Shown: positions 22,167 to 63,335 of the stretch, piece after piece
How positions within the stretch are numbered: the first letter of the stretch is position 1
Layout: each line of letters starts with the position of its first letter
From: Candidatus Competibacteraceae bacterium
GTDB lineage: Bacteria; Pseudomonadota; Gammaproteobacteria; Competibacterales; Competibacteraceae
Length of the DNA: 64,000 bases
Assembly (NCBI GenBank): GCA_046347555.1
Contig: JAXMFY010000008.1
Location: 60,022 to 124,021, forward strand
Direction: 5' to 3'
The notes under the pieces: generated by a model
What the model saw: the letters and a program-made list of their open reading frames with translations, nothing else
What the model was told of the DNA's origin: nothing
Databases searched by the model: none
Translations under genes and position numbers: made by a program

Positions 22167-23214
22167 ATGAAGCGGATCGTAGCGCGCCATGCCATTGCCC
22201 TGCGGGTGGTGGTGTTGGGCCTGTGTCTGGTCCAACAAACCGGGCTTGGGCCGCTGGCGAGCCGGAACGCCGACCCGTTCGGATTCTCGCGCTGACCGCA
22301 CCGGCTTGCCCACCGACGTACAGCCCTGGTGGCCAAGCCGCTATGGCGCGGACGATCAGCTCGGTACTTCAACGAAATTACGCCTGAAGTGGCGCGAGCA
22401 GCGGCCGCTCTGGTGAAAACCGGAACCGTCGTCGATCTGGGTCGGGTGCTGGATGACGACACGCCCAAGTTTCCCGGCCGCTACTGGCACCAGACCGTCG
22501 ATGTTTCGCCTCATTTCACCAACCTGCGCCGCCCGGATGTCGATGGCAAGGGCTGGGGCAAGAACCAGATCAACTGGATTACCGAGATTCAGGTGGGTAC
22601 CTTCCAGGTCGGCACCCAACTGGATTCCATCGGCCACATCCAGATCGGCGACCGGTTCTACAACGGCTGGACCACGCGCGACGTGGTGGAGTCGTGGGGC
22701 CTGAATCGCTTCGGCACCGAAACCGTGCCGCCCATCGTCACCCGGGGCGTGCTGATCGACATCGCCGCTTACAAGGGCGTGGAGCGCCTGGCCAAGGGTT
22801 ATGTGATCACCCTGGCCGACGTGCAAGGCGCGTTGAAAAAGCAGGGCGTTAGCCTGCAGGCCCGGCGATGCGGTGCTGTTTCACACCGGTTGGGGCGGGC
22901 TGGGGCAAGGACAACGCCGAATTTCTTCCGGCGAGCCCGGTCCCGGCCTGGAGGTCGTGAACTGGCTGTACGCGCAACGCATCGCGCTGACCGGCGCCGA
23001 CACCTGGAGCTACGGACCGGTGCCCGGCGAAGACCCGGAACGTCCCTTCCTGGTGCCACAGACCATGTACGTGAAGATGGGATTGTTTGGCCTGGAGAAT
23101 CTGGCGACCGAAGAGCTGGCGCGGCGCGGCGTCCACGAATTCCTGTTCACCCTCACCCATGCCAAGACCCGCGGCTCGACGGCGGCGGTCATCGCCCCGG
23201 CGGCGGTTTATTGA
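22167..23214 (+). pseudogene. Cyclase-family (kynurenine-formamidase-like, PF04199) gene disrupted by two or more frameshifts
   Basis: Homologous segments sit in different frames: signal-peptide-like MKRIVARHAIALRVVVLGL... ending at a TGA; then WWPSRYGADDQLGT; then FNEITPEV...KKQGVSLQ; then PGDAVLFHTGWGG...GADTWSYGP. Apparent 1-nt indels near 22368 (T-run) and 22857 (extra G). Confidence 0.5.
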
Positions 23215-23229
23215 GAAGGAAACACCACC

Positions 23230-24672
23230 ATGAACGAACGCTATGACGCCCTCATCGTCGGTTCCGGCGCGGGCGGATCGGCGGCGGCTTACGCTTTGGC
23301 GCGGGCTGGTCGCCGGGTGCTGCTGCTGGAAAAGGGGCGGGAACTCCCGCGCGACGGCAGCACAATGGACGTGGACAAGGTGATCCGGCAAGGGATTTTC
23401 AAGAGCAAGGAGCACTGGCTCGACAAGAACGGCCGAACCTTCGAGCCGGAGGAATATTTCAATCTGGGCGGCAAGACCAAGTGGTACGGGGCGGCCCTGG
23501 CCCGATTTGAACCGCACGAGTTCGAGGCCGAACCGGCGCATCAATGCTTGCCTTGGCCGATGTCGTATCGGGAATTGCTGCCTTACTACGAGCAAGCGGA
23601 AACTTTGCTGAGCGTCCATCAATTCGAGCCGGAGCCAGATCTGCAAGCCATTGTTGGCAAGTTGACCCGCAACGGCGCCGGCTGGAACGCCCGACCCCTG
23701 ACGCTGGCGCTGGATTCCAGCATCGTCGAACATCCCGAGGAAGCCGCGCACTTCGACGCCTTCGCCTCGGTCAAGAACCTGAAAGCTGACGGCCAGCACG
23801 CTTTGTTGGAGCGGGTTCAACATCGGCCCAACCTCACCATCCTGACCGGGCAGGCGGTACGCGATTTCGTCGCCGACCCCGAGCGGCCTGAGCGGTTACT
23901 CGGCGTTCGCACCGAGAGTGGCGACGAATTCGAGGCCAATACGGTGTTGCTGGCGGCGGGAGCGTTGCACTCGCCGCGTTTGTTGCAAGGCTATCTGAGC
24001 CGCAGCGGTCTGGCCGAGAAGCTGCCGTGCGCTGACGCGGTGGGACGCAATTACAAATGCCACCTGCTCAGCGCCGTGTTGGCCTTTTCCGCTACCCCCA
24101 AGACCGACCTGCTGCGGAAGACTCTGTTGCTGTTGAACGACCGGTTGCCGCACAGCAGTATTCAGCCCCTGGGTTTCGATGGTGAACTGCTCAGCACCCT
24201 GATTCCGGGGTTCGTGCCACGCGGGTTCGCCCGTGCCCTCGGCCATCGCGCCTACGGTTTCTTCTTGCAGACCGAGGACGGTTCCGATCCCGCCAACCGC
24301 GTCGTCGCCCAGACCAACGGCGCCCGCTATCCCCAGCTCGACTACGATCCCGCGCGCTTGCCAGCGGCCCGTGAGGAGCATCGGCGGCTGGTGCGCGACT
24401 TCAATCGCTCGCTGTGGAAAATCGGTCTGCCGGCGGCGGCCAAGGGGATTCCGCTGGCCGGTACCGCGCACGCCTGCGGCACGCTGGTCGCGGGCAGCGA
24501 TCCCCGCACCTCGGTGGTGGACGCCGATGGCAAGGTACACGGCCTAGACAACTTGTACGTGGTGGACGGCAGCGTGCTGCCGCGTTCCAGCCGGGTCAAT
24601 CCGTCGCTGACCATCTACGCCTGGGCGTTGCGGGTGGCGGAGCGGTTGCAACAAGGAGAGCGGCCGGCATGA
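23230..24672 (+). CDS. GMC-family FAD-dependent oxidoreductase
   Basis: N-terminal DALIVGSGAGGSAAAYALA FAD motif. C-terminal GTAHACGT...NLYVVDGSVLP GMC signature. Confidence 0.75.
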   Translation: MNERYDALIVGSGAGGSAAAYALARAGRRVLLLEKGRELPRDGSTMDVDKVIRQGIFKSKEHWLDKNGRTFEPEEYFNLGGKTKWYGAALARFEPHEFEAEPAHQCLPWPMSYRELLPYYEQAETLLSVHQFEPEPDLQAIVGKLTRNGAGWNARPLTLALDSSIVEHPEEAAHFDAFASVKNLKADGQHALLERVQHRPNLTILTGQAVRDFVADPERPERLLGVRTESGDEFEANTVLLAAGALHSPRLLQGYLSRSGLAEKLPCADAVGRNYKCHLLSAVLAFSATPKTDLLRKTLLLLNDRLPHSSIQPLGFDGELLSTLIPGFVPRGFARALGHRAYGFFLQTEDGSDPANRVVAQTNGARYPQLDYDPARLPAAREEHRRLVRDFNRSLWKIGLPAAAKGIPLAGTAHACGTLVAGSDPRTSVVDADGKVHGLDNLYVVDGSVLPRSSRVNPSLTIYAWALRVAERLQQGERPA

Positions 24673-26762
24673 GCGACAAACTGCCGAGCTTTATCCGTTT
24701 TGGGCGGGCGATCTGCAGCGATCTCGACCAAGCCGAGCGGCGCGAGTGGTGGCTGGGCAACGGCTTGGGCGCCTACGCCGCCGGCACGATTGCGGGAACG
24801 CTGACCCGCCGCTATCACGGCTTGTTGATCGCGCCGGTCGATCCGCCGCTCGGCCGCTGGCTGGTGTTTTCCAAAGCCGACGCCACGTTGCTCGACGGCG
24901 ACCGGGAAATCCCGCTGTTCGCCAACCGCTGGGGCGGGGGCGTGGTGGTTCCCGAAGGGCACGTCCATCTTGAATCCTTTCACCTGCACGGCCGGATGCC
25001 GGTCTGGCGCTATGCCCTAGGCGACCGGGTGGTTGAGCAACGCATCTGGCTGGAGCCGGGGGCCAATACGGTTTATATCGCGTACCGGCTGGAAATCCCC
25101 CCTAACCCCCCTTTGCAAAAGGGGGGTGGCAAAGCCGGGGGGATTTTCGCACTGCGGGTCCGTTTGCTGGTCAACGCCCGCGACCATCACGTCAGCATGG
25201 CGCCCGGTGGATTCAGGCCGCAAGTGGAAATGGCGGGCGAGCAACTCCAGGTCACCAGTCCCGACCGGTTCACGCTCCGCTTTCAAGCGGCTGGCGGCGC
25301 GTTGCAAACCGAGTGGGACTGGATCGAGAATTTCGATTTGCCGGTGGAACGGGAACGCGGCCTGCCGGATCGGGATGCCCATCTCAGCGTCGGTTACGCG
25401 CTGTTGACGCTGCGTCCCGGCTGCTGGGTCGGAATTGCCGCCAGCCTGGGCGACGACGCTTCCGCCGACCTGGACGCGGCGCTGCAACGGTTTTTCGACC
25501 GAGAACAGGCATTGCTCGACCGCGCCCGGCCATCCCTTCAAATCCCCCCCAACCCCCCTTTGCCAAAGGGGGGTGGCGAAGCCGGGGGGATTTCGCCGCC
25601 CGACTGGATCGAACAACTGGCGCTCGCCGCCGACAGCTTCTTGTTCGCCCGACCACTGCCCAGTTTACCCGACGGCGAATCGGTGATCGCCGGCTATCCC
25701 TGGTTCGGCGACTGGGGCCGCGACACCATGATCGCTCTGCCGGGCCTGACGCTGGCGACAGGCCGGCTCGACAGCGCACGCCGTATCCTGCTGACTTTCG
25801 CCCGCTTCGTGGACCAAGGTATGCTGCCCAACGTGTTTCCCGGCGCGGGCGAGACGCCGGACTACAACACGGTGGACGCCGGGCTGTGGTACTTCGAGGC
25901 GTGGCGGGCCTATCTGGAAGCCAGCGACGATTGGTCGGCGCTGGCCGAGGTGTTTCCGGTGCTGGCCGACATGATCGACTGGCACGTCCGGGGCACGCGC
26001 TATCGGATCGGCATGGATGCGACTGACGGATTGATTCATGCCGGCGAGCCGGGCGTCCAACTCACCTGGATGGACGCCAAGGTGGGCGACTGGGTAGTGA
26101 CGCCGCGCATCGGCAAGCCGGTCGAGATTAACGCGCTCTGGTACAACGCCCTGATGATTATGGCCGATTTCGCCGAGCGGTTGGGGCAACCATCCGCGAC
26201 CTACGCGGAACTTGCGGCCAAGGCGCGGCAAGGCTTCCGGCGTTTTGTTCGTTCCGATGGCGCCGGCCTGTTCGACGTGCTGGATAGCCCCACCGGCGAC
26301 GATCCCACCCCGCGTCCCAACCAGATTTTCGCCGTCAGCCTGCCGCACAGTCCGCTGGATGCGGAAATCCAGCAGATCGTGGTACGAGTTTGCGGGCGGG
26401 AGTTGTTGACCTCCTACGGTCTTCGTTCCCTGGCGCCCGGTCATCCCGATTACCGCCCCCGTTACCTCGGCGGCGTGTGGGAACGCGACGGCGGCTATCA
26501 CCAGGGTCCGGTCTGGGCCTGGCTGCTGGGCCACTACGCCCTGGCCGAGTATCGCGTGCATGGCGACGCGGCGGCGGCCCAGGCCCGGTTGCAACCCGTC
26601 CGTGATCACCTGCTGGACGCTGGCTTGGGCACGGTCAGCGAAATTCTCGACGGCGCTCCACCGCACGTCCCGCGCGGCGCGCCCGCCCAGGCATGGTCGG
26701 TGGCTTGCGTCCTGGAGGCGTGGCAGCGACTGGAACGGCTGAAGCGGCTGAAACGGCAGTAA
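24670..26762 (+). CDS. Glycogen debranching enzyme-like (GH133 amylo-alpha-1,6-glucosidase, GDE_N+GDE_C). Carries two in-frame repeat-element insertions.
   Basis: Start ATG overlaps the GMC stop (ATGA). C-terminal GDE_C motifs (GYPWFGDWGRDTMIALPGL...NALWYNAL...). The listed 782-aa ORF's N-terminal 85 aa is out-of-frame read-through. Confidence 0.75.
25093..25147. repeat. Palindromic C6/G6 repeat element inserted in-frame within the GH133 CDS (copy 1). Translated as PPNPPLQKGGGKAGGI.
   Basis: AAATCCCCCC-TAA-CCCCCC-TTTGCAAAA-GGGGGG-TGGCAAAGCC-GGGGGG-ATTT: nested inverted repeats. A near-identical second copy lies 447 bp downstream. Confidence 0.55.
25540..25593. repeat. Palindromic C6/G6 repeat element inserted in-frame within the GH133 CDS (copy 2). 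Translated as PPNPPLPKGGGEAGGI.
   Basis: AATCCCCCCC-AA-CCCCCC-TTTGCCAAA-GGGGGG-TGGCGAAGCC-GGGGGG-ATTT. Confidence 0.55.
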
Positions 26763-28354: not shown

Positions 28355-28434
28355 CGCGCGTCTCCTCGGTTATCGTTTATGGGCGATGACGCAAACCCTA
28401 GCGAAAGGGGGCCGGTGGTGGGTCGGGGGGAGGT

Positions 28435-29616: not shown

Positions 29617-29720
29617 TCCCCTCTCCCCCTGCCAAGGGGGAGAGGGTTAGGGTGAGGGGGTAAGCCCTTGCATCCACGACCCTCATCCCCAACCCCTCTC
29701 CCGCCTGCGGGGGAGGGGAG
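29617..29720. repeat. Composite intergenic inverted-repeat element: two inverted ~40-bp modules (C5-loop-G5 hairpin plus GGTTAGGGTGAGGG) flanking a ~20-bp spacer
   Basis: CTCTCCCCCTGCCAAGGGGGAGAGGGTTAGGGTGAGGGGG ... CCCTCATCCCCAACCCCTCTCCCGCCTGCGGGGGAGGGGAG. Same architecture at 51011-51133 and 53194-53287. Confidence 0.55.
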
Positions 29721-42343: not shown

Positions 42344-45310
42344 TCACCCGTTTCGCGTTCGGCGGCGGCGCGGCTTTTCGGTCGGTTCGGGAAAATCCCG
42401 GATGCGCCGCACCCACAGCGCGATGTCCGGGTCCATCCGCGCTAGCACCGCCTGCGGGTTCTTCGCTTCGTCTACTTGCGCGAGCGCCTCTAATAGGGAT
42501 GCCTGCTTGGGCGCATCCAGGGCCAATTCCGGGGTCAACAATCCCGCCACGTCGCGAATCAGGCCAGGGTCCCGGCAATCCCGTGCGAAGGTGGACACGA
42601 TATCGGAAAGCGCGGAATTCAGGGCAAGGTTGTGATTCCGGCGCAGGCCACAGAGGCGAACCACGCGCGGCAATACACCTCGGGCGGCCTCGAATCCCGC
42701 CGCCCGGCCTTCCGCCGCAGCGACACGCGCGATGGCTGCACCGACGGCGGGCCAGCGGGGAAAGCTTAGATAGCCACCACCTGCGAGTCGATCCGCTTGA
42801 CTCTCAATCAGCTTGTCCAGCGCATCCCAAGCGTGCGCCCGCACTGCGGCGGCATACAGCTCGACAAGAAAGTCTCTCCAGTCCGTTTCGTCCTCTTTTT
42901 TTGCCGCTGTCGTGTCTGATTCAACCCATTTCGCGAAGACCGCAACGGCCTCCGGAGAGGCTACATGTCTGGCAGCTATGATGGCCTGTGCTGCTGCCGA
43001 CACCGATTGTGCGAGCGCGAAAGATTGCAGCGCCCCGGACAAAGCGTCCTCGTATCGACCAGACAAGATGAGCAAACCACCTGCTTGTAGCAGGGCCTGG
43101 GCTTGCTTGCCGATACTTCCAACTTGGGCGAACAAAACGGCGGCTTGCTGTGCCATGGCGGTCGCCTCCTCGTACCGGCCCAACTGGCCTAGCGAAAACG
43201 CAGCAACTTGCAGGGCCATGGCTTGTAAGAGGGCATCTCTGGCTTGGGCAGCCAGGGCGGCAGCCTCCCGCGCCGTTCCAATCACCTCCTCATGCCGTCC
43301 CAACTCGCCGAGCGAAAAGGCGGCAACTCCCAAAGCTACGGCCTGTTCACGGACATCCCCTGTCTGGGCCGCCAGGGTGGCAGCGTCCCGCGCTGTGGCA
43401 ATGGCCTCTTCATGCTGTCTCGACTGGCCGAGAGACCAAGCGACATATCGCAAGGCTACGACCTGTTCGCTGACATCCCCTGTCTGGGCCGCCAGGGTGG
43501 CAGCGTCCCGCGCTGTGGCAATGGCCTCTTCATGCTGTCTCGACTGGCCGAGCGAAAAGGCGCGACAACACAGCGCGAAAGCTCGCAAAGGTTTGGGTAA
43601 TTCGGCTGGGATGGCATTGCCTGCCTTGTCCCAACACAGGATGGCGGCAACTTTGTCAACCCTCAGGCTGTCTAGCAAATCACCCCACTCGTACTGAAGC
43701 AGCACTTGAGCCGCCGGATTCGTATTGGCCGCAATTTCTTGGATGAGCCGCTCGTTGGCCTGGTCCATCAACTCCATACGGGCGAGCGCCTGAGCCCCAA
43801 TGATAGCGGCGGCGGCCTTGGCGATGGGCGTTGCTGGCTTCCATTGACCTATTTGATGAGCGATATCTTCGGGATGATCTTTTAGCTCGCGCAGAATCTG
43901 CTCGATGGGCACCGGAATCACCTCGTCGCAACAACTTGCAATCCGCTTCAGTCGCCAGTCGAAATACCCAAAGTAGCCGTTAAACCCATTGCCCGCCGGC
44001 ACGCCCTCACAGGCCAAGTCAGCGAAAATTCGGGCTTCGGCGGGCTGGCCCGCGTTCAGGTGCCGCATCGCTTGCACCCCTTGCTCCTCGCGTGAGTAGA
44101 AGGCGCGCAGGAAATCGAGAATGGTGGCGAGCGGCGTTTGCAGCGCGAGTTGCTGGCCCTGGCGCAGCCGGTAGAAGTGCGCGAACACCCGGTCGGTGAC
44201 GCGGTAGAGTGTCTCGCGGCCGTCCAGCGCGGGCAATCCCCGGATGATATCGGCGCGCTGCAAATCCTGCATCACCCGGGCGATGGTGTTTTGCCCCCCC
44301 GCACCGACGCGCTGGGCCAGCTCGGTCTGCGACGCCGGTTCGCCACCCCGGATCAGCGCATCGAACAGGCCCTGGGCCAGGGCGGGCAGATCGTCGATAC
44401 GCCGCCGGTAATAGTCCGCCAGCTTGTCGGCCAGCGCGTTCATGGTGGCGGCGACCGACAACGCATCCTGCGTCTCCAACACATCGGCCAACAATTGTGC
44501 CAGACGCGGGTTGCCGCCGATGAAGTCGGCTACGGCCCGCGCCTTGGCCTCCGCCGCCGCGTCCAGCGGCGCCAGCGCCTCCGCCTCGCGACGACGGTTG
44601 AAGTAGCGGATGCAGGTATCCTGCGACCAGGGTTCCAGGCGGATCGACTGAAAGGCTTGGAACAGGGGGCGGTCGTAGTCCATATCCACCGAGCCGGTCG
44701 CCGTGGCGATCAACATGATCCGGTTGCGCGGACGATCCAGCCACTTGCGCAAACGCTGCTCGGCGGCATCTTCCTTGAAGACGCCGGCGAGGAGAACATC
44801 GAAGTTTTCGATCACCACCACGACCATGCCCCGGCCCGCCGGCAAGGACTGATCGAGTTCGCGTTCAAGCTGATCCACGGCCTCGTCCCACTGGCGGGCT
44901 TCTTTCACAGGATCGGGCCACTGGAACATCGCCCCCGCCCAGCTTCGATCCTCGCTGGTGCGCAGATCGACGACCTTGTGGGCGATATAAGCCGGGAGCG
45001 CGTGGGGATTGCGCGTCAGGTTGTGCTGCTCTTCCGGCAACAGCACGAAGGGAATGGGCACGCCCCGCGCGGCGGCCAAGTCCGCAGTCTCGATCTGCAC
45101 CAGACGGGCCACGAAGGATTTGCCGAACCCGCGCGGGCCGTAAATCGCGACGTGTTGCAACGCGCCCGGCGCGGCCCCGAGGCTGCGCCGAACGGCCTCC
45201 ATGATCCGCCCGGTTTCCTGCTCGCGGCCGGTGGCGAGCGCGCGGATGGCCGCGTCGGTCATCCGATGGGTCATGAAGGTCTGGACGAGCGGAGAAGCGG
45301 GCGCGTTCAT
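42344..45310 (-). CDS. STAND-type P-loop NTPase with winged-helix and C-terminal TPR-like repeats (~988 aa)
   Basis: Walker A GPRGFGKSF, Walker B VVVVIENFD, wHTH-like segment, then repeated ~40-aa TPR-like units. True start is MNAPAS at 45310, overlapping the upstream stop by 1 nt (TGATG). The listed 1254-aa ORF has a 266-aa out-of-frame N-terminus. Confidence 0.6.
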   Translation of the reverse strand: MNAPASPLVQTFMTHRMTDAAIRALATGREQETGRIMEAVRRSLGAAPGALQHVAIYGPRGFGKSFVARLVQIETADLAAARGVPIPFVLLPEEQHNLTRNPHALPAYIAHKVVDLRTSEDRSWAGAMFQWPDPVKEARQWDEAVDQLERELDQSLPAGRGMVVVVIENFDVLLAGVFKEDAAEQRLRKWLDRPRNRIMLIATATGSVDMDYDRPLFQAFQSIRLEPWSQDTCIRYFNRRREAEALAPLDAAAEAKARAVADFIGGNPRLAQLLADVLETQDALSVAATMNALADKLADYYRRRIDDLPALAQGLFDALIRGGEPASQTELAQRVGAGGQNTIARVMQDLQRADIIRGLPALDGRETLYRVTDRVFAHFYRLRQGQQLALQTPLATILDFLRAFYSREEQGVQAMRHLNAGQPAEARIFADLACEGVPAGNGFNGYFGYFDWRLKRIASCCDEVIPVPIEQILRELKDHPEDIAHQIGQWKPATPIAKAAAAIIGAQALARMELMDQANERLIQEIAANTNPAAQVLLQYEWGDLLDSLRVDKVAAILCWDKAGNAIPAELPKPLRAFALCCRAFSLGQSRQHEEAIATARDAATLAAQTGDVSEQVVALRYVAWSLGQSRQHEEAIATARDAATLAAQTGDVREQAVALGVAAFSLGELGRHEEVIGTAREAAALAAQARDALLQAMALQVAAFSLGQLGRYEEATAMAQQAAVLFAQVGSIGKQAQALLQAGGLLILSGRYEDALSGALQSFALAQSVSAAAQAIIAARHVASPEAVAVFAKWVESDTTAAKKEDETDWRDFLVELYAAAVRAHAWDALDKLIESQADRLAGGGYLSFPRWPAVGAAIARVAAAEGRAAGFEAARGVLPRVVRLCGLRRNHNLALNSALSDIVSTFARDCRDPGLIRDVAGLLTPELALDAPKQASLLEALAQVDEAKNPQAVLARMDPDIALWVRRIRDFPEPTEKPRRRRTRNG

Positions 45311-46598: not shown

Positions 46599-46725
46599 GA
46601 TGGGTTTCGCTACGCTCAACCCATCCTACGAAAAACCAATGGGTTGTAGGATGGGTTTACGAAAAACCAATGGGTTGTAGGATGGGTTTACGAAAAACCA
46701 ATGGGTTGTAGGATGGGTTGAGGAA
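46599..46725. repeat. 31-bp tandem direct repeat (ACGAAAAACCAATGGGTTGTAGGATGGGTTT) x ~3.3, each unit with internal dyad symmetry
   Basis: Exact tandem copies at 46628, 46659 and 46690, plus a partial leading copy. No spacers, so not CRISPR. Confidence 0.6.
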
Positions 46726-51010: not shown

Positions 51011-51133
51011 TCTCCCTCCCCCCTTGCGGGGGAGGGTTGGGGTGGGGGTTGACCGATCAGCCCGCCATCATTCAAGGAGTTGCGATTCAACCCTACCCCC
51101 CTCCCTCGCCCTCCCCCGCAAGGGGGGAGGGGA
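51011..51133. repeat. Composite intergenic inverted-repeat element (same family as 29617-29720)
   Basis: CTCCCTCCCCCCTTGCGGGGGAGGGTTGGGGTGGGGG ... CCCTACCCCCCTCCCTCGCCCTCCCCCGCAAGGGGGGAGGGG. Confidence 0.55.
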
Positions 51134-51200
51134 TTTCCTGGTTTTAATAATAAAATCAATTGTTTGGAGATACGCGTAATGGACAGGTTTCGAGCCACGC

Positions 51201-55082: not shown

Positions 55083-55604
55083 ATGACAGACCAAGATAGC
55101 GAACAGCTCCATGACATGACGCCCGGCCCCCTTGAAGAGGAATCAACCCAGGAAGAGCGCCGAGAGTTTCTACGTAGCCTGGGCAAGTGGTCGCAGGCGG
55201 TGATCGGTGGGGTGGTGGTGGGTGGCGCCCTGACCACGCCCAACCCCGCCGAGGCATGGTACAACGGGGGGGGTGGCATGGTTGTCCCCCCTGGAGAGCG
55301 TGATTGGTACTATCGAGGTGGCGGCTGGGGCAACCGGGGTGGTGGTTGGGTCAACCGGGGCGGCAGTTGGGGCAACCGGGGTGGTGGTTGGGTCAACCGG
55401 GGCGGTGGTTGGGTCAACCGGGGTGGTGGTTGGGCCAACCGGGGCGGCGGGTGGTACAACCGGGGTGGCTGGGGTAACCGGGGTGGCGGGTGGTATAACC
55501 GGGGTGGCTGGGGTAACCGGGGTGGCGGGTGGTATAACCGGGGCGGTGGTTGGCATAACCACGGCGGCGGGTGGTGGAACCGGGGTGGCTGGGGTAACAA
55601 ATAA
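55083..55604 (+). CDS. Tat-signal precursor peptide with ~15 tandem G-G-G-W-x-N-(R/H/K)-G-G repeats. Candidate RiPP substrate of the adjacent rSAM/SPASM enzyme.
   Basis: Twin-arginine motif ERREFLRSLG with hydrophobic segment and AEA cleavage site. The rest is almost pure W-x-N-R plus Gly. The 27-bp DNA unit repeats tandemly, producing mirror ORFs on all other frames. Confidence 0.65.
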   Translation: MTDQDSEQLHDMTPGPLEEESTQEERREFLRSLGKWSQAVIGGVVVGGALTTPNPAEAWYNGGGGMVVPPGERDWYYRGGGWGNRGGGWVNRGGSWGNRGGGWVNRGGGWVNRGGGWANRGGGWYNRGGWGNRGGGWYNRGGWGNRGGGWYNRGGGWHNHGGGWWNRGGWGNK

Positions 55605-55765
55605 GCAAAGCCAGGGCTCCTTGACCGGGCGGGTTTCGCTCGGGCTTGTAAGAAAATTCAATCCTCCAAGTAAAAAGCCTCTCTCCCACGCGGGAGAGAG
55701 GCAAAGGGGTGGGAGTCATTTTCCCACCGACCTGCCATACCAGGGTATGGCAGGACCATCAACGC

Positions 55766-57882: not shown

Positions 57883-62793
<4,911 letters not shown>

Positions 62794-63132: not shown

Positions 63133-63246
63133 GGCGAGCGCGGAAACAGCGGACTCACGTCCGCCGCTCGCCAGTGATTCAACTATGTTGCCCTCGACGG
63201 CGGCATCGGTACGGAAACAGCGGACTCACGTCCGCCGCTCGCCAGC
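63133..63246. promoter_or_regulatory. Two copies of a 36-bp direct repeat (CGGAAACAGCGGACTCACGTCCGCCGCTCGCCAG) spaced ~74 bp apart, upstream of the response-regulator gene. Candidate regulator binding sites.
   Basis: Exact repeats at 63133-63172 and 63207-63246 in the divergent kinase/regulator intergenic region. Confidence 0.4.
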
Positions 63247-63335
63247 GATCGCGTTCGTCAAAAAGCCATCCCCCTTGAGACGAACGGTATAAGCTGTCAA
63301 TCACTCATCAACGCCGTATTCGCCGGATCGAGACC

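Follow-up and report, generated by a model that had tools for sequence, protein, structure and literature searches.

The Rickettsia palindromic elements (RPEs) are palindromes of ~100-150 bp that lie in-frame in many apparently functional protein genes (Ogata et al. 2000, 2002; summarised in PMC10969869 and PMC3733652). Repetitive extragenic palindromes (REPs) and REP doublets forming hairpins (REPINs) carry GTAG or CGTC tags, and some of them are intragenic and encode extra residues (Di Nocera et al. 2013, PMC3733652; Bertels and Rainey 2011, PMC3116915). The MITEs of bacteria (miniature inverted-repeat transposable elements) measure 70-300 bp, are flanked by target-site duplications (TA in the case of Correia elements) and have a related insertion sequence (reviewed in PMC10969869). 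The subject of this analysis is a smaller palindrome built around runs of six C and six G residues (the C6/G6 element), of which two copies lie inside a gene for a GH133-type amylo-alpha-1,6-glucosidase in a 64,000-nucleotide stretch of DNA, referred to below as the window, from a Candidatus Competibacteraceae bacterium (positions 60,022 to 124,021 of contig JAXMFY010000008.1, assembly GCA_046347555.1). With a probability of roughly 80%, what lies here is a pair of copies of a tiny, non-autonomous, selfish palindromic element, inserted in-frame in loops of the GH133 enzyme of one Competibacteraceae sub-lineage.

Each copy is 54 nt long, and the two are 51/54 (94%) identical; they start 447 nt (149 codons) apart and lie in the same frame of one intact open reading frame (ORF), encoding IPPNPPLQKGGGKAGGI and IPPNPPLPKGGGEAGGI, respectively. 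An earlier reading of the DNA by a model (the original prediction), which had described two nearly identical 54-bp segments 447 bp apart, in-frame within one coding sequence, is borne out in these respects, coordinates included. Within the window the 46-nt core of the element is matched only by these two copies when up to three mismatches are allowed, and 100 dinucleotide-preserving shuffles of the window yield no match; the occurrence of two copies is far beyond chance. Profile hidden Markov models (HMMs) of the wider family retrieve both copies with nhmmer at E = 7e-20 (copy 1) and E = 8e-20 (copy 2), and find no significant third copy in the 64 kb, the next best hit having E = 0.1.

Folded as single-stranded DNA, each copy is predicted to form a Y-shaped double hairpin with nested dyad symmetry, in which an outer stem (AAATCCCCCC paired with GGGGGGATTT) encloses two further hairpins, an inner one (CCCCCCTTTG/CAAAGGGGGG, loop of 3 nt) and a side one of 3 bp, GGC-RAA-GCC (Table 1). 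The DNA free energies are -22.4 to -24.5 kcal/mol (z = -3.8 to -5.6 relative to shuffled sequences), and the RNA free energies of the two copies are -43.2 and -36.5 kcal/mol; the nested symmetry that had been noticed by inspection corresponds to a stable structure of three stems. The side mini-hairpin is a 7-nt expansion of the right-hand spacer that marks the sub-variant found in the window and is missing from canonical 47-nt members in the alignment. GCGAAGC, which is contained in one of the two side hairpins, is reportedly an unusually stable DNA mini-hairpin (and is said to have been studied by Hirao and colleagues in the 1990s). It would fit a single-stranded DNA intermediate, and is noted here as a lead. 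Neither copy is flagged in a consensus scan as an intrinsic terminator (a GC-rich hairpin leading straight into a T run); the tails that follow them are ATTTTCGC and ATTTCGCC. The best Rfam match on the element (mir-3154, 20 bits vs a gathering score of 64) is a chance match.

Table 1. The two C6/G6 copies, their predicted hairpins and the host gene (window coordinates)
Feature	Position	Strand	Product, partner or basis
Copy 1, C6/G6 mini-palindrome	25093..25146	+	Encodes IPPNPPLQKGGGKAGGI, residues 143-159; beta-hairpin loop of GDE_N (predicted)
Copy 1 outer stem, left arm AAATCCCCCC	25093..25102	+	Partner 25137-25146 (GGGGGGATTT); minimum-free-energy folds of DNA and RNA
Copy 1 inner hairpin, CCCCCCTTTG-CAA-AAGGGGGG	25106..25126	+	10-bp stem, 3-nt loop; predicted DNA and RNA folds
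Copy 1 side mini-hairpin, GGC-AAA-GCC	25128..25136	+	DNA fold; alignment with canonical members
Copy 2, C6/G6 mini-palindrome	25540..25593	+	Encodes IPPNPPLPKGGGEAGGI, residues 292-308; GDE_N-GDE_C linker (predicted)
Copy 2 outer stem, left arm AAATCCCCCC	25540..25549	+	Partner 25584-25593; predicted DNA fold
Copy 2 inner hairpin, CCCCCCTTTG-CCA-AAGGGGGG	25553..25573	+	Predicted DNA fold
Copy 2 side mini-hairpin, GGC-GAA-GCC, includes GCGAAGC	25575..25583	+	Predicted DNA fold
GH133-type amylo-alpha-1,6-glucosidase (glycogen debranching enzyme family)	24669..26762	+	697 aa, intact frame; ORF listing

Comparison of orthologues (an alignment of 42 proteins, a neighbour-joining tree derived from it, and the DNA of eight of them) identifies both segments as lineage-specific insertions; the conservation in distant orthologues that would have told against the original prediction is not seen among the 42. 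(Proteins are designated by P numbers in what follows, and the locations of copies 1 and 2 are called site 1 and site 2.) All orthologues with no more than 75% identity lack both inserts, and carry short loops, YRLEx-7 residues-LRL at one site and RARPxLA-DSPPDW at the other; because the length of these loops is constant in all of them, the short form is taken as the ancestral state. The same distant orthologues rule out a conserved motif of the enzyme family. Among Competibacter orthologues with 80-90% identity, each site is empty or filled independently of the other: site 2 alone is filled in P0003 and P0009, site 1 alone in P0006-P0008, P0011 and P0026, and neither in P0017 and others. As listed from the alignment, copy 1 is missing from P0003, P0009, P0012-P0024 and others, and copy 2 from P0006-P0008, P0011, P0014, P0017 and others. 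That orthologues carry either site alone also rules out intragenic duplication as the sole source of the second copy. Presence and absence are patchy on the tree, with differences between sister pairs (P0026 vs P0028, P0011 vs P0024, P0009 vs P0017/P0020 and P0027 vs P0035). Since the empty alleles retain the ancestral loop they cannot be products of excision, and it follows that the sites have been filled several times or that filled alleles have been exchanged between strains.

The filled sites themselves are of several kinds. At site 1 of P0011 and P0026 the same element is reversed and read in two different frames (PPASPPPFEKGGAGGD and NPPGFATPLLQRGVGGD), the core in P0026 being the exact reverse complement of the core in P0007. 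P0004 has compound copies at both sites, in which a new copy begins directly after the ..GCAAA of the older copy's loop. Decayed versions, for example SIPPRTSLAKGSGKAGKIS, persist in P0031 and P0034 (77-78% identity), and the palindrome is lost in older copies. When strains are compared, copies at a given site show single, uncompensated changes of the stems; selection for the hairpin is therefore not seen after insertion. What these comparisons describe is a dispersed, recently active repeat that enters genes in both orientations, sometimes onto older copies of itself, ends up in loops and linkers, and then decays. The mobile palindromic element of the original prediction is in this sense supported, being polymorphic, dispersed, found both ways round, and located in loops.

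Site 2 is also the place of a different G/C-run hairpin repeat, which fills it in P0012, P0013, P0030 and P0033 and belongs to the family that is present in the intergenic DNA of the window at 29617-29720. Members of this second family lie at 29617-29662, 29677-29720, 51011-51050, 51096-51136 and 28396-28431, often as inverted pairs, and have the form CCCTCTCCCCC-loop-GGGGGAGAGGG followed by a TTAGGGTGAGGGGG-type tail. They are not matched by the C6/G6 family HMMs (E >= 0.2): the kinship that had been proposed between the element and the C5-loop-G5 intergenic repeats of the window does not hold, and on this evidence the two are separate families.

The 697-aa product of the host gene has the same sequence as P0001, a database protein annotated from a metagenome-assembled genome (MAG) of a Candidatus Competibacteraceae bacterium, and shows the amylo-alpha-1,6-glucosidase architecture (Pfam GDE_N at residues 25-253 and GDE_C at residues 333-683). 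In an AlphaFold model built from the 42 orthologues, insert 1 would lie in a beta-hairpin loop between strands 134-142 and 160-172, with a predicted local distance difference test score (pLDDT) below 50 at residues 146-157, and insert 2 in the interdomain linker between helices 268-290 and 312-325, with pLDDT below 50 at residues 292-308. Both are thus modelled as low-confidence loops between elements of secondary structure, which is consistent with the proposal that they are tolerated within protein loops. No PDB structure spans the insert sites, the only matches being C-domains of eukaryotic debranching enzymes, which match from residue 316 on. The gene has as its neighbours a convergent GH57 gene and genes for a GMC oxidoreductase and for leucine biosynthesis.

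The copies in the window belong to a wider family with the consensus wAAT-C6-N3-C6-TTT-N3-AAA-G6-N3..12-G6-ATTw. A scan of one genome per species (GTDB representatives) with the pattern C6-N3-C6TTT-N3-AAAG6-N3..12-G6 yields at least 120 stretches of the canonical family in many phyla, and a 30-base pattern of this kind is not expected by chance even in 596 Gb. Conservation of the C and G runs is not evidence, because the scan pattern itself fixes them. The flanks are not specified by the pattern, yet wAAT on the left and ATTw on the right are found in 111-123 of 126 copies among the matches listed; beyond these four bases the flanks of the 126 copies are random, without an extended palindrome. 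Canonical members have 3-nt spacers on both sides and measure 45 nt from AAT to ATT, the size of the element overall being 45-54 nt. In the sub-variant of the window the right spacer is expanded to TGGCRAAGCC; the TGGCGAAGCC spacer occurs in 103 metagenome stretches (sludge, soil and groundwater), and the sub-variant is also present in one Gammaproteobacteria MAG (L160; L numbers designate loci). Tandem arrays with a 47-nt period, consisting of a partial element (the inner hairpin, TGGCGAAGCC and GGGGGGATT, joined by CCTACTT), are found at L304:5234-5355 and L234:7148-7268, so that modules of the element can evidently be rearranged.

By record title, the carriers listed comprise Nitrospirota/Thermodesulfovibrionia, Nitrospinota and Desulfobacterota (Syntrophaceae, Desulfarculaceae and Geobacter), Beta- and Gammaproteobacteria (Sulfuricella, Methylomonas, Crenothrix, Marithrix and Tenderia), Chloroflexota, Dehalococcoidia, Patescibacteria, Methylomirabilis, an anammox bacterium, Acidobacteriota, Bacteroidetes and one MAG labelled Promethearchaeota. 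Errors of MAG binning may inflate this list; the GC content of the loci, which ranges from 0.32 to 0.72, is enough by itself to show that the hosts are very different. Several genomes have copies on more than one contig (four loci in VGWY01, three in JANRJF01). Canonical copies also occur in nine viral contigs, mostly inside ORFs. (The pattern had been tightened because a loose C6/G6 scan of viral contigs gave mostly poly-C/poly-G assembly junk.) Copies within phage or prophage genes or IMG/VR contigs are those of L246 and L256, in a Mu-type portal gene, and of the viral loci L013, L026, L063, L075, L083 and L099; phages are a possible route of transfer between hosts. A search with a 33-residue peptide against 1.8 billion representative proteins gave a single, uninformative match.

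Copies of the wider family, too, are often found in ordinary protein genes. Among loci with GC content below 0.5 (where long spurious ORFs are unlikely), 34/65 copies lie inside ORFs that are open for at least 80 codons on each side, vs 46% of random 45-nt windows from the same loci; there is therefore no avoidance of coding DNA. Intragenic copies use all three frames (22:14:7), and copies whose length is not a multiple of three are also found inside genes, which implies that the junctions re-establish the frame, presumably through selection. Pfam-confirmed hosts of canonical copies are AcrB (two copies), a P-type ATPase, PurL and GltX; the sub-variant of the window is found in-frame in a Methyltransf_28 protein, a Mu-type portal protein, an MmeI-type restriction-modification enzyme, the SucB E2 linker and a 2951-aa GH94 glucan synthase. 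By strict criteria, 16/95 copies of the GC-rich sub-variant are confidently intragenic, and many others adjoin genes for Bug/TctC receptors. The occurrence of near-identical copies in unrelated genes and in the intergenic DNA of other contigs is what defines the element as a dispersed repeat. HypF of one Nitrospirota MAG has three copies, and an orthologue that is 85% identical has none; other HypF orthologues have members of the family in the same loop region.

Other low-complexity inserts, likewise lineage-specific, are seen repeatedly at a small number of loop positions in the Nitrospirota HypF alignment (A2), at columns 533-564, 666-732 and 946-957, for example ISNLKSQTNH, QYPSPITHHPLPVFY and MNAHSPIHPST. 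They may stem from further families of repeats entering coding DNA.

A course of events that would account for these observations can be outlined as follows. A 45-54-nt double-hairpin C6/G6 element would enter two permissive loops of GH133 in one Competibacteraceae sub-lineage, and the inserted copies would be transcribed and translated as part of the enzyme. The fixed positions of the element are free of stop codons in all six frames, and the C and G runs specify Pro and Gly in every frame (NPPxPPFxKGGxGGI, IPPxPPLxKGGxGGF or KSPLxPLxxRGxxGDF), with the consequence that any frame gives a loop of the Pro-Pro..Lys-Gly-Gly type. Tolerance would come from the flexible, Pro/Gly-rich character of the added loop, with selection sparing only frame-restoring insertions in surface loops or linkers. 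The same two loops would be hit repeatedly because of this selective filter for permissive loops, and copies would decay neutrally once inserted. We infer both that the element is selfish and that the inserts are translated without harm to the enzyme. As to movement, the best guess, rather an unlikely one, is that a HUH/Y1-type transposase of single-stranded DNA, encoded at another place in the genome, would recognise the hairpins and act on the folded strand.

A number of observations weigh against insertion of a selfish element followed by filtering in permissive loops. The quality of the structure model is moderate (mean pLDDT 64, predicted template modelling score 0.69). The only two copies in 64 kb share one gene, and related strains show repeated hits in these two loops, which could reflect targeting or benefit, not a selective filter. 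At the junctions, the element replaces sequence: the empty allele of site 1 is CTGGAATCC-GCCGATACCGACCA-GGATTTGCG and the filled allele CTGGAA-ATCCCCCC...GGGGGGATTT-TCGCA, with ~19 nt of ancestral loop replaced for a net gain of +30 nt, and at site 2, where 13 nt of ancestral loop give way to the insert, the net gain is +48 nt. This is an outcome that classical cut-and-paste or peel-and-paste transposition does not predict. Examination of 126 copies reveals no target-site duplication of 3 nt or more above shuffled expectation (a 2-nt AT duplication is inseparable from the conserved wAAT/ATTw ends). There is no transposase in the window, and all-against-all clustering of ORFs detects no recurrent transposase-like family near ~230 fetched copies, the only recurring clusters being abundant paralogues (Bug/TctC receptors, histidine kinases and ABC ATPases). 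Taken together with the lack of a GTAG or CGTC tag, these properties make for a poor fit to classical transposition. They can be accommodated by the hairpin-recognising transposase encoded elsewhere, or if the element is copied in from other copies in the genome without a dedicated enzyme, by template switching during replication or repair or by short-patch gene conversion at terminus-like places, its orientation being flipped in place by template switching within the quasi-palindrome; this second option is a possible, if doubtful, alternative. In its favor, the empty P0017 allele (L225:301-2307, a 2007-nt gene) has GAATCC and GGATTT once each, both at site 1 (nt 424-449), 20 nt apart and oriented as are the ends of the element, and it is the sequence between them that is replaced in filled alleles; the two motifs may be pseudo-ends that guide insertion. 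Net gains vary (+30, +33, +39, +42, +45 and +48 nt), with loss of loop residues in GH133 and HypF. Moreover, GH94 glucan synthase genes of two related metagenome contigs (L261 and L298) have the element at the same codon position, with the same junctions (GCTGAAAT|..|ATTTCA), in opposite orientations, which suggests inversion in situ or several insertions at a single target. On the other hand, site 2 of GH133 has no comparable likeness to the ends of the element, and one HypF site has gained precisely the C6..G6 core of 39 nt, set between AAT and ATT, as in a clean site-specific insertion. (At two of the three HypF sites the filled and empty DNAs, compared at 85% protein identity, are too diverged to fix the junctions.) Near-identical copies in Nitrospirota, Proteobacteria and viral contigs are also more easily accounted for by an active, horizontally transferred element than by accidents of repair.

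The inserts might instead be kept because they serve the host, as mRNA hairpins that help folding by pausing ribosomes at a domain boundary or that tune mRNA stability, or as functional Pro/Gly linkers. The stability of the predicted RNA folds (-43 and -36 kcal/mol), the location of copy 2 exactly at the GDE_N/GDE_C boundary, the reoccupation of the same two loops in related strains, and the persistence of the decayed copies in P0031 and P0034 would all be compatible with such a benefit. It is nonetheless improbable: many close orthologues do without either insert, unrelated families of repeats and both orientations fill the same sites, stem mutations go uncompensated and older copies have lost their palindrome. 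Elsewhere, the host genes are functionally unrelated, and in other phyla the intragenic rate is approximately random. Still less credence attaches to an artefact of MAG assembly or binning, or to an ancient conserved motif of the enzyme, for either of which the chances are very slight. The source is indeed a MAG, and poly-C/poly-G junk was common at contig ends in the loose viral scan, but the same inserts appear at the same codons in independent NCBI, ENA, JGI and Logan assemblies; the two copies preserve the reading frame and are located mid-way in a contig of 124 kb, and 54 nt is shorter than one sequencing read. An ancient motif is excluded by the distant orthologues that lack the segments. 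The selfish palindromic element inserted in permissive loops accordingly stands as the preferred reading.

Beyond the GH133 gene, the family could tentatively be regarded as a mobile DNA class, so far undescribed, that crosses the bacterial phyla: a 39-45-nt C6/G6 palindrome, open and Pro/Gly-encoding in all six frames, that would colonise coding DNA as freely as intergenic DNA and move between phyla, perhaps by way of phages, and be installed by swapping the sequence between two end-like motifs without target duplication. No published description of the C6/G6 family was found in the full-text literature searched by sequence string, peptide and concept, a scope that mostly excludes subscription journals, so that an earlier report is possible. 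Searches by DNA string retrieve only papers on the polypurine tract of human immunodeficiency virus (HIV) and the like, searches by insert peptide nothing, and searches by concept only work on RPEs, REPs and MITEs; what has been described in Geobacter as 'multicopy sequences within genes' consists of other motifs and is ruled out as the same element. Several consequences would follow. The element would be a recurrent source of 10-18-residue insertions in housekeeping enzymes (tRNA synthetase, PurL, HypF, AcrB and E2 linkers), and homopolymer C/G arms that are read as Pro/Gly in any frame offer a rule for their tolerance. Such insertions may lead alignment, structure prediction and strain typing astray; on the useful side, they point protein engineers to loop positions that are permissive by nature. 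With neither target duplication nor a known transposase, the mechanism of spread is a tractable question.

The window contains other repeats and irregularities. Approximately 13 tandem copies of a 21-nt (occasionally 18-nt) unit, GGTGGTTGGGTCAACCGGGGC, glycine-rich if translated, occupy 55278-55619; four tandem 120-nt units, 61-72% identical to a reference copy, lie at 43019-43562; and a 31-nt unit, TACGAAAAACCAATGGGTTGTAGGATGGGTT, is repeated three times in tandem at 46627-46725, with two identical copies. Two 38-nt direct repeats (63141-63178 and 63212-63249; 97% identical and 71 nt apart) are located just upstream of, or at the start of, a gene for an OmpR-type response regulator. A cyclase-family gene at 22329-23246 has an apparent change of frame near 22870, its C-terminal part (Pfam Cyclase positions 97-140) being in the frame of the ORF at 22873-23214; this is either a pseudogene or a sequencing error of the MAG.

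How, then, does the C6/G6 element compare with the described families? With the MITEs it shares terminal inverted repeats (its outer arms AAATCCCCCC and GGGGGGATTT), a non-autonomous nature and an occasional intragenic location. It differs from them in its size of 45-54 nt, in having no duplication of 3 nt or more, and in that no parent insertion sequence is found among the fetched loci. The original prediction had likened the element to RPEs and to Correia-type insertions; the RPE-like behaviour stands, and the assignment to Correia-type MITEs fails on the absence of target-site duplications of 3 nt or more from the 126 copies.

Short, GC-rich, imperfect and multicopy palindromes are also what REPs and REPINs are, and the C6/G6 element answers to that description, albeit at 45-54 nt vs the usual REP length of 20-40 nt. 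It ends in wAAT/ATTw and has no GTAG or CGTC tag, and its stem is two-tiered or three-way rather than single. REPs are mostly extragenic, just downstream of genes, whereas the C6/G6 element has no extragenic bias (34/65 in ORFs vs 46%). Inverted doublets of the element are absent from the window, as is any gene for a REP-associated tyrosine transposase (RAYT), and no transposase-like cluster recurs in the ~230 fetched loci.

Cyanobacteria reportedly harbour very small dispersed repeats of ~21-27 nt, attributed to work of Elhai and colleagues in 2008, that insert into one another and into coding DNA. These resemble the C6/G6 element as tiny mobile palindromes that enter one another as well as coding DNA (the compound copies of P0004 are comparable), and differ from it in sequence, in the phyla of their hosts and in being shorter.

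The closest likeness in behaviour is with the RPEs: in-frame palindromes in unrelated, apparently functional genes, lineage-specific and compatible with the fold of the protein, and approximately as common inside genes as outside. RPEs come from an AT-rich, obligately intracellular genus and encode longer peptides, in contrast to the C6/G6 element, which contributes a Pro/Gly loop of 13-18 aa from 45-54 nt in free-living hosts of many phyla. Neither the length of the RPEs nor their restriction to Rickettsia applies to it; it is set apart from them by these descriptive features. In-frame selfish palindromes have so far been largely a curiosity of Rickettsia, together with scattered intragenic REPs, and with the C6/G6 element they would also be a feature of free-living bacteria in many phyla, among them an organism abundant in wastewater. 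In its behaviour it matches the RPEs and the intragenic GTAG/CGTC REPs; it stands out by its small size, its spread across phyla and its lack of avoidance of coding DNA.

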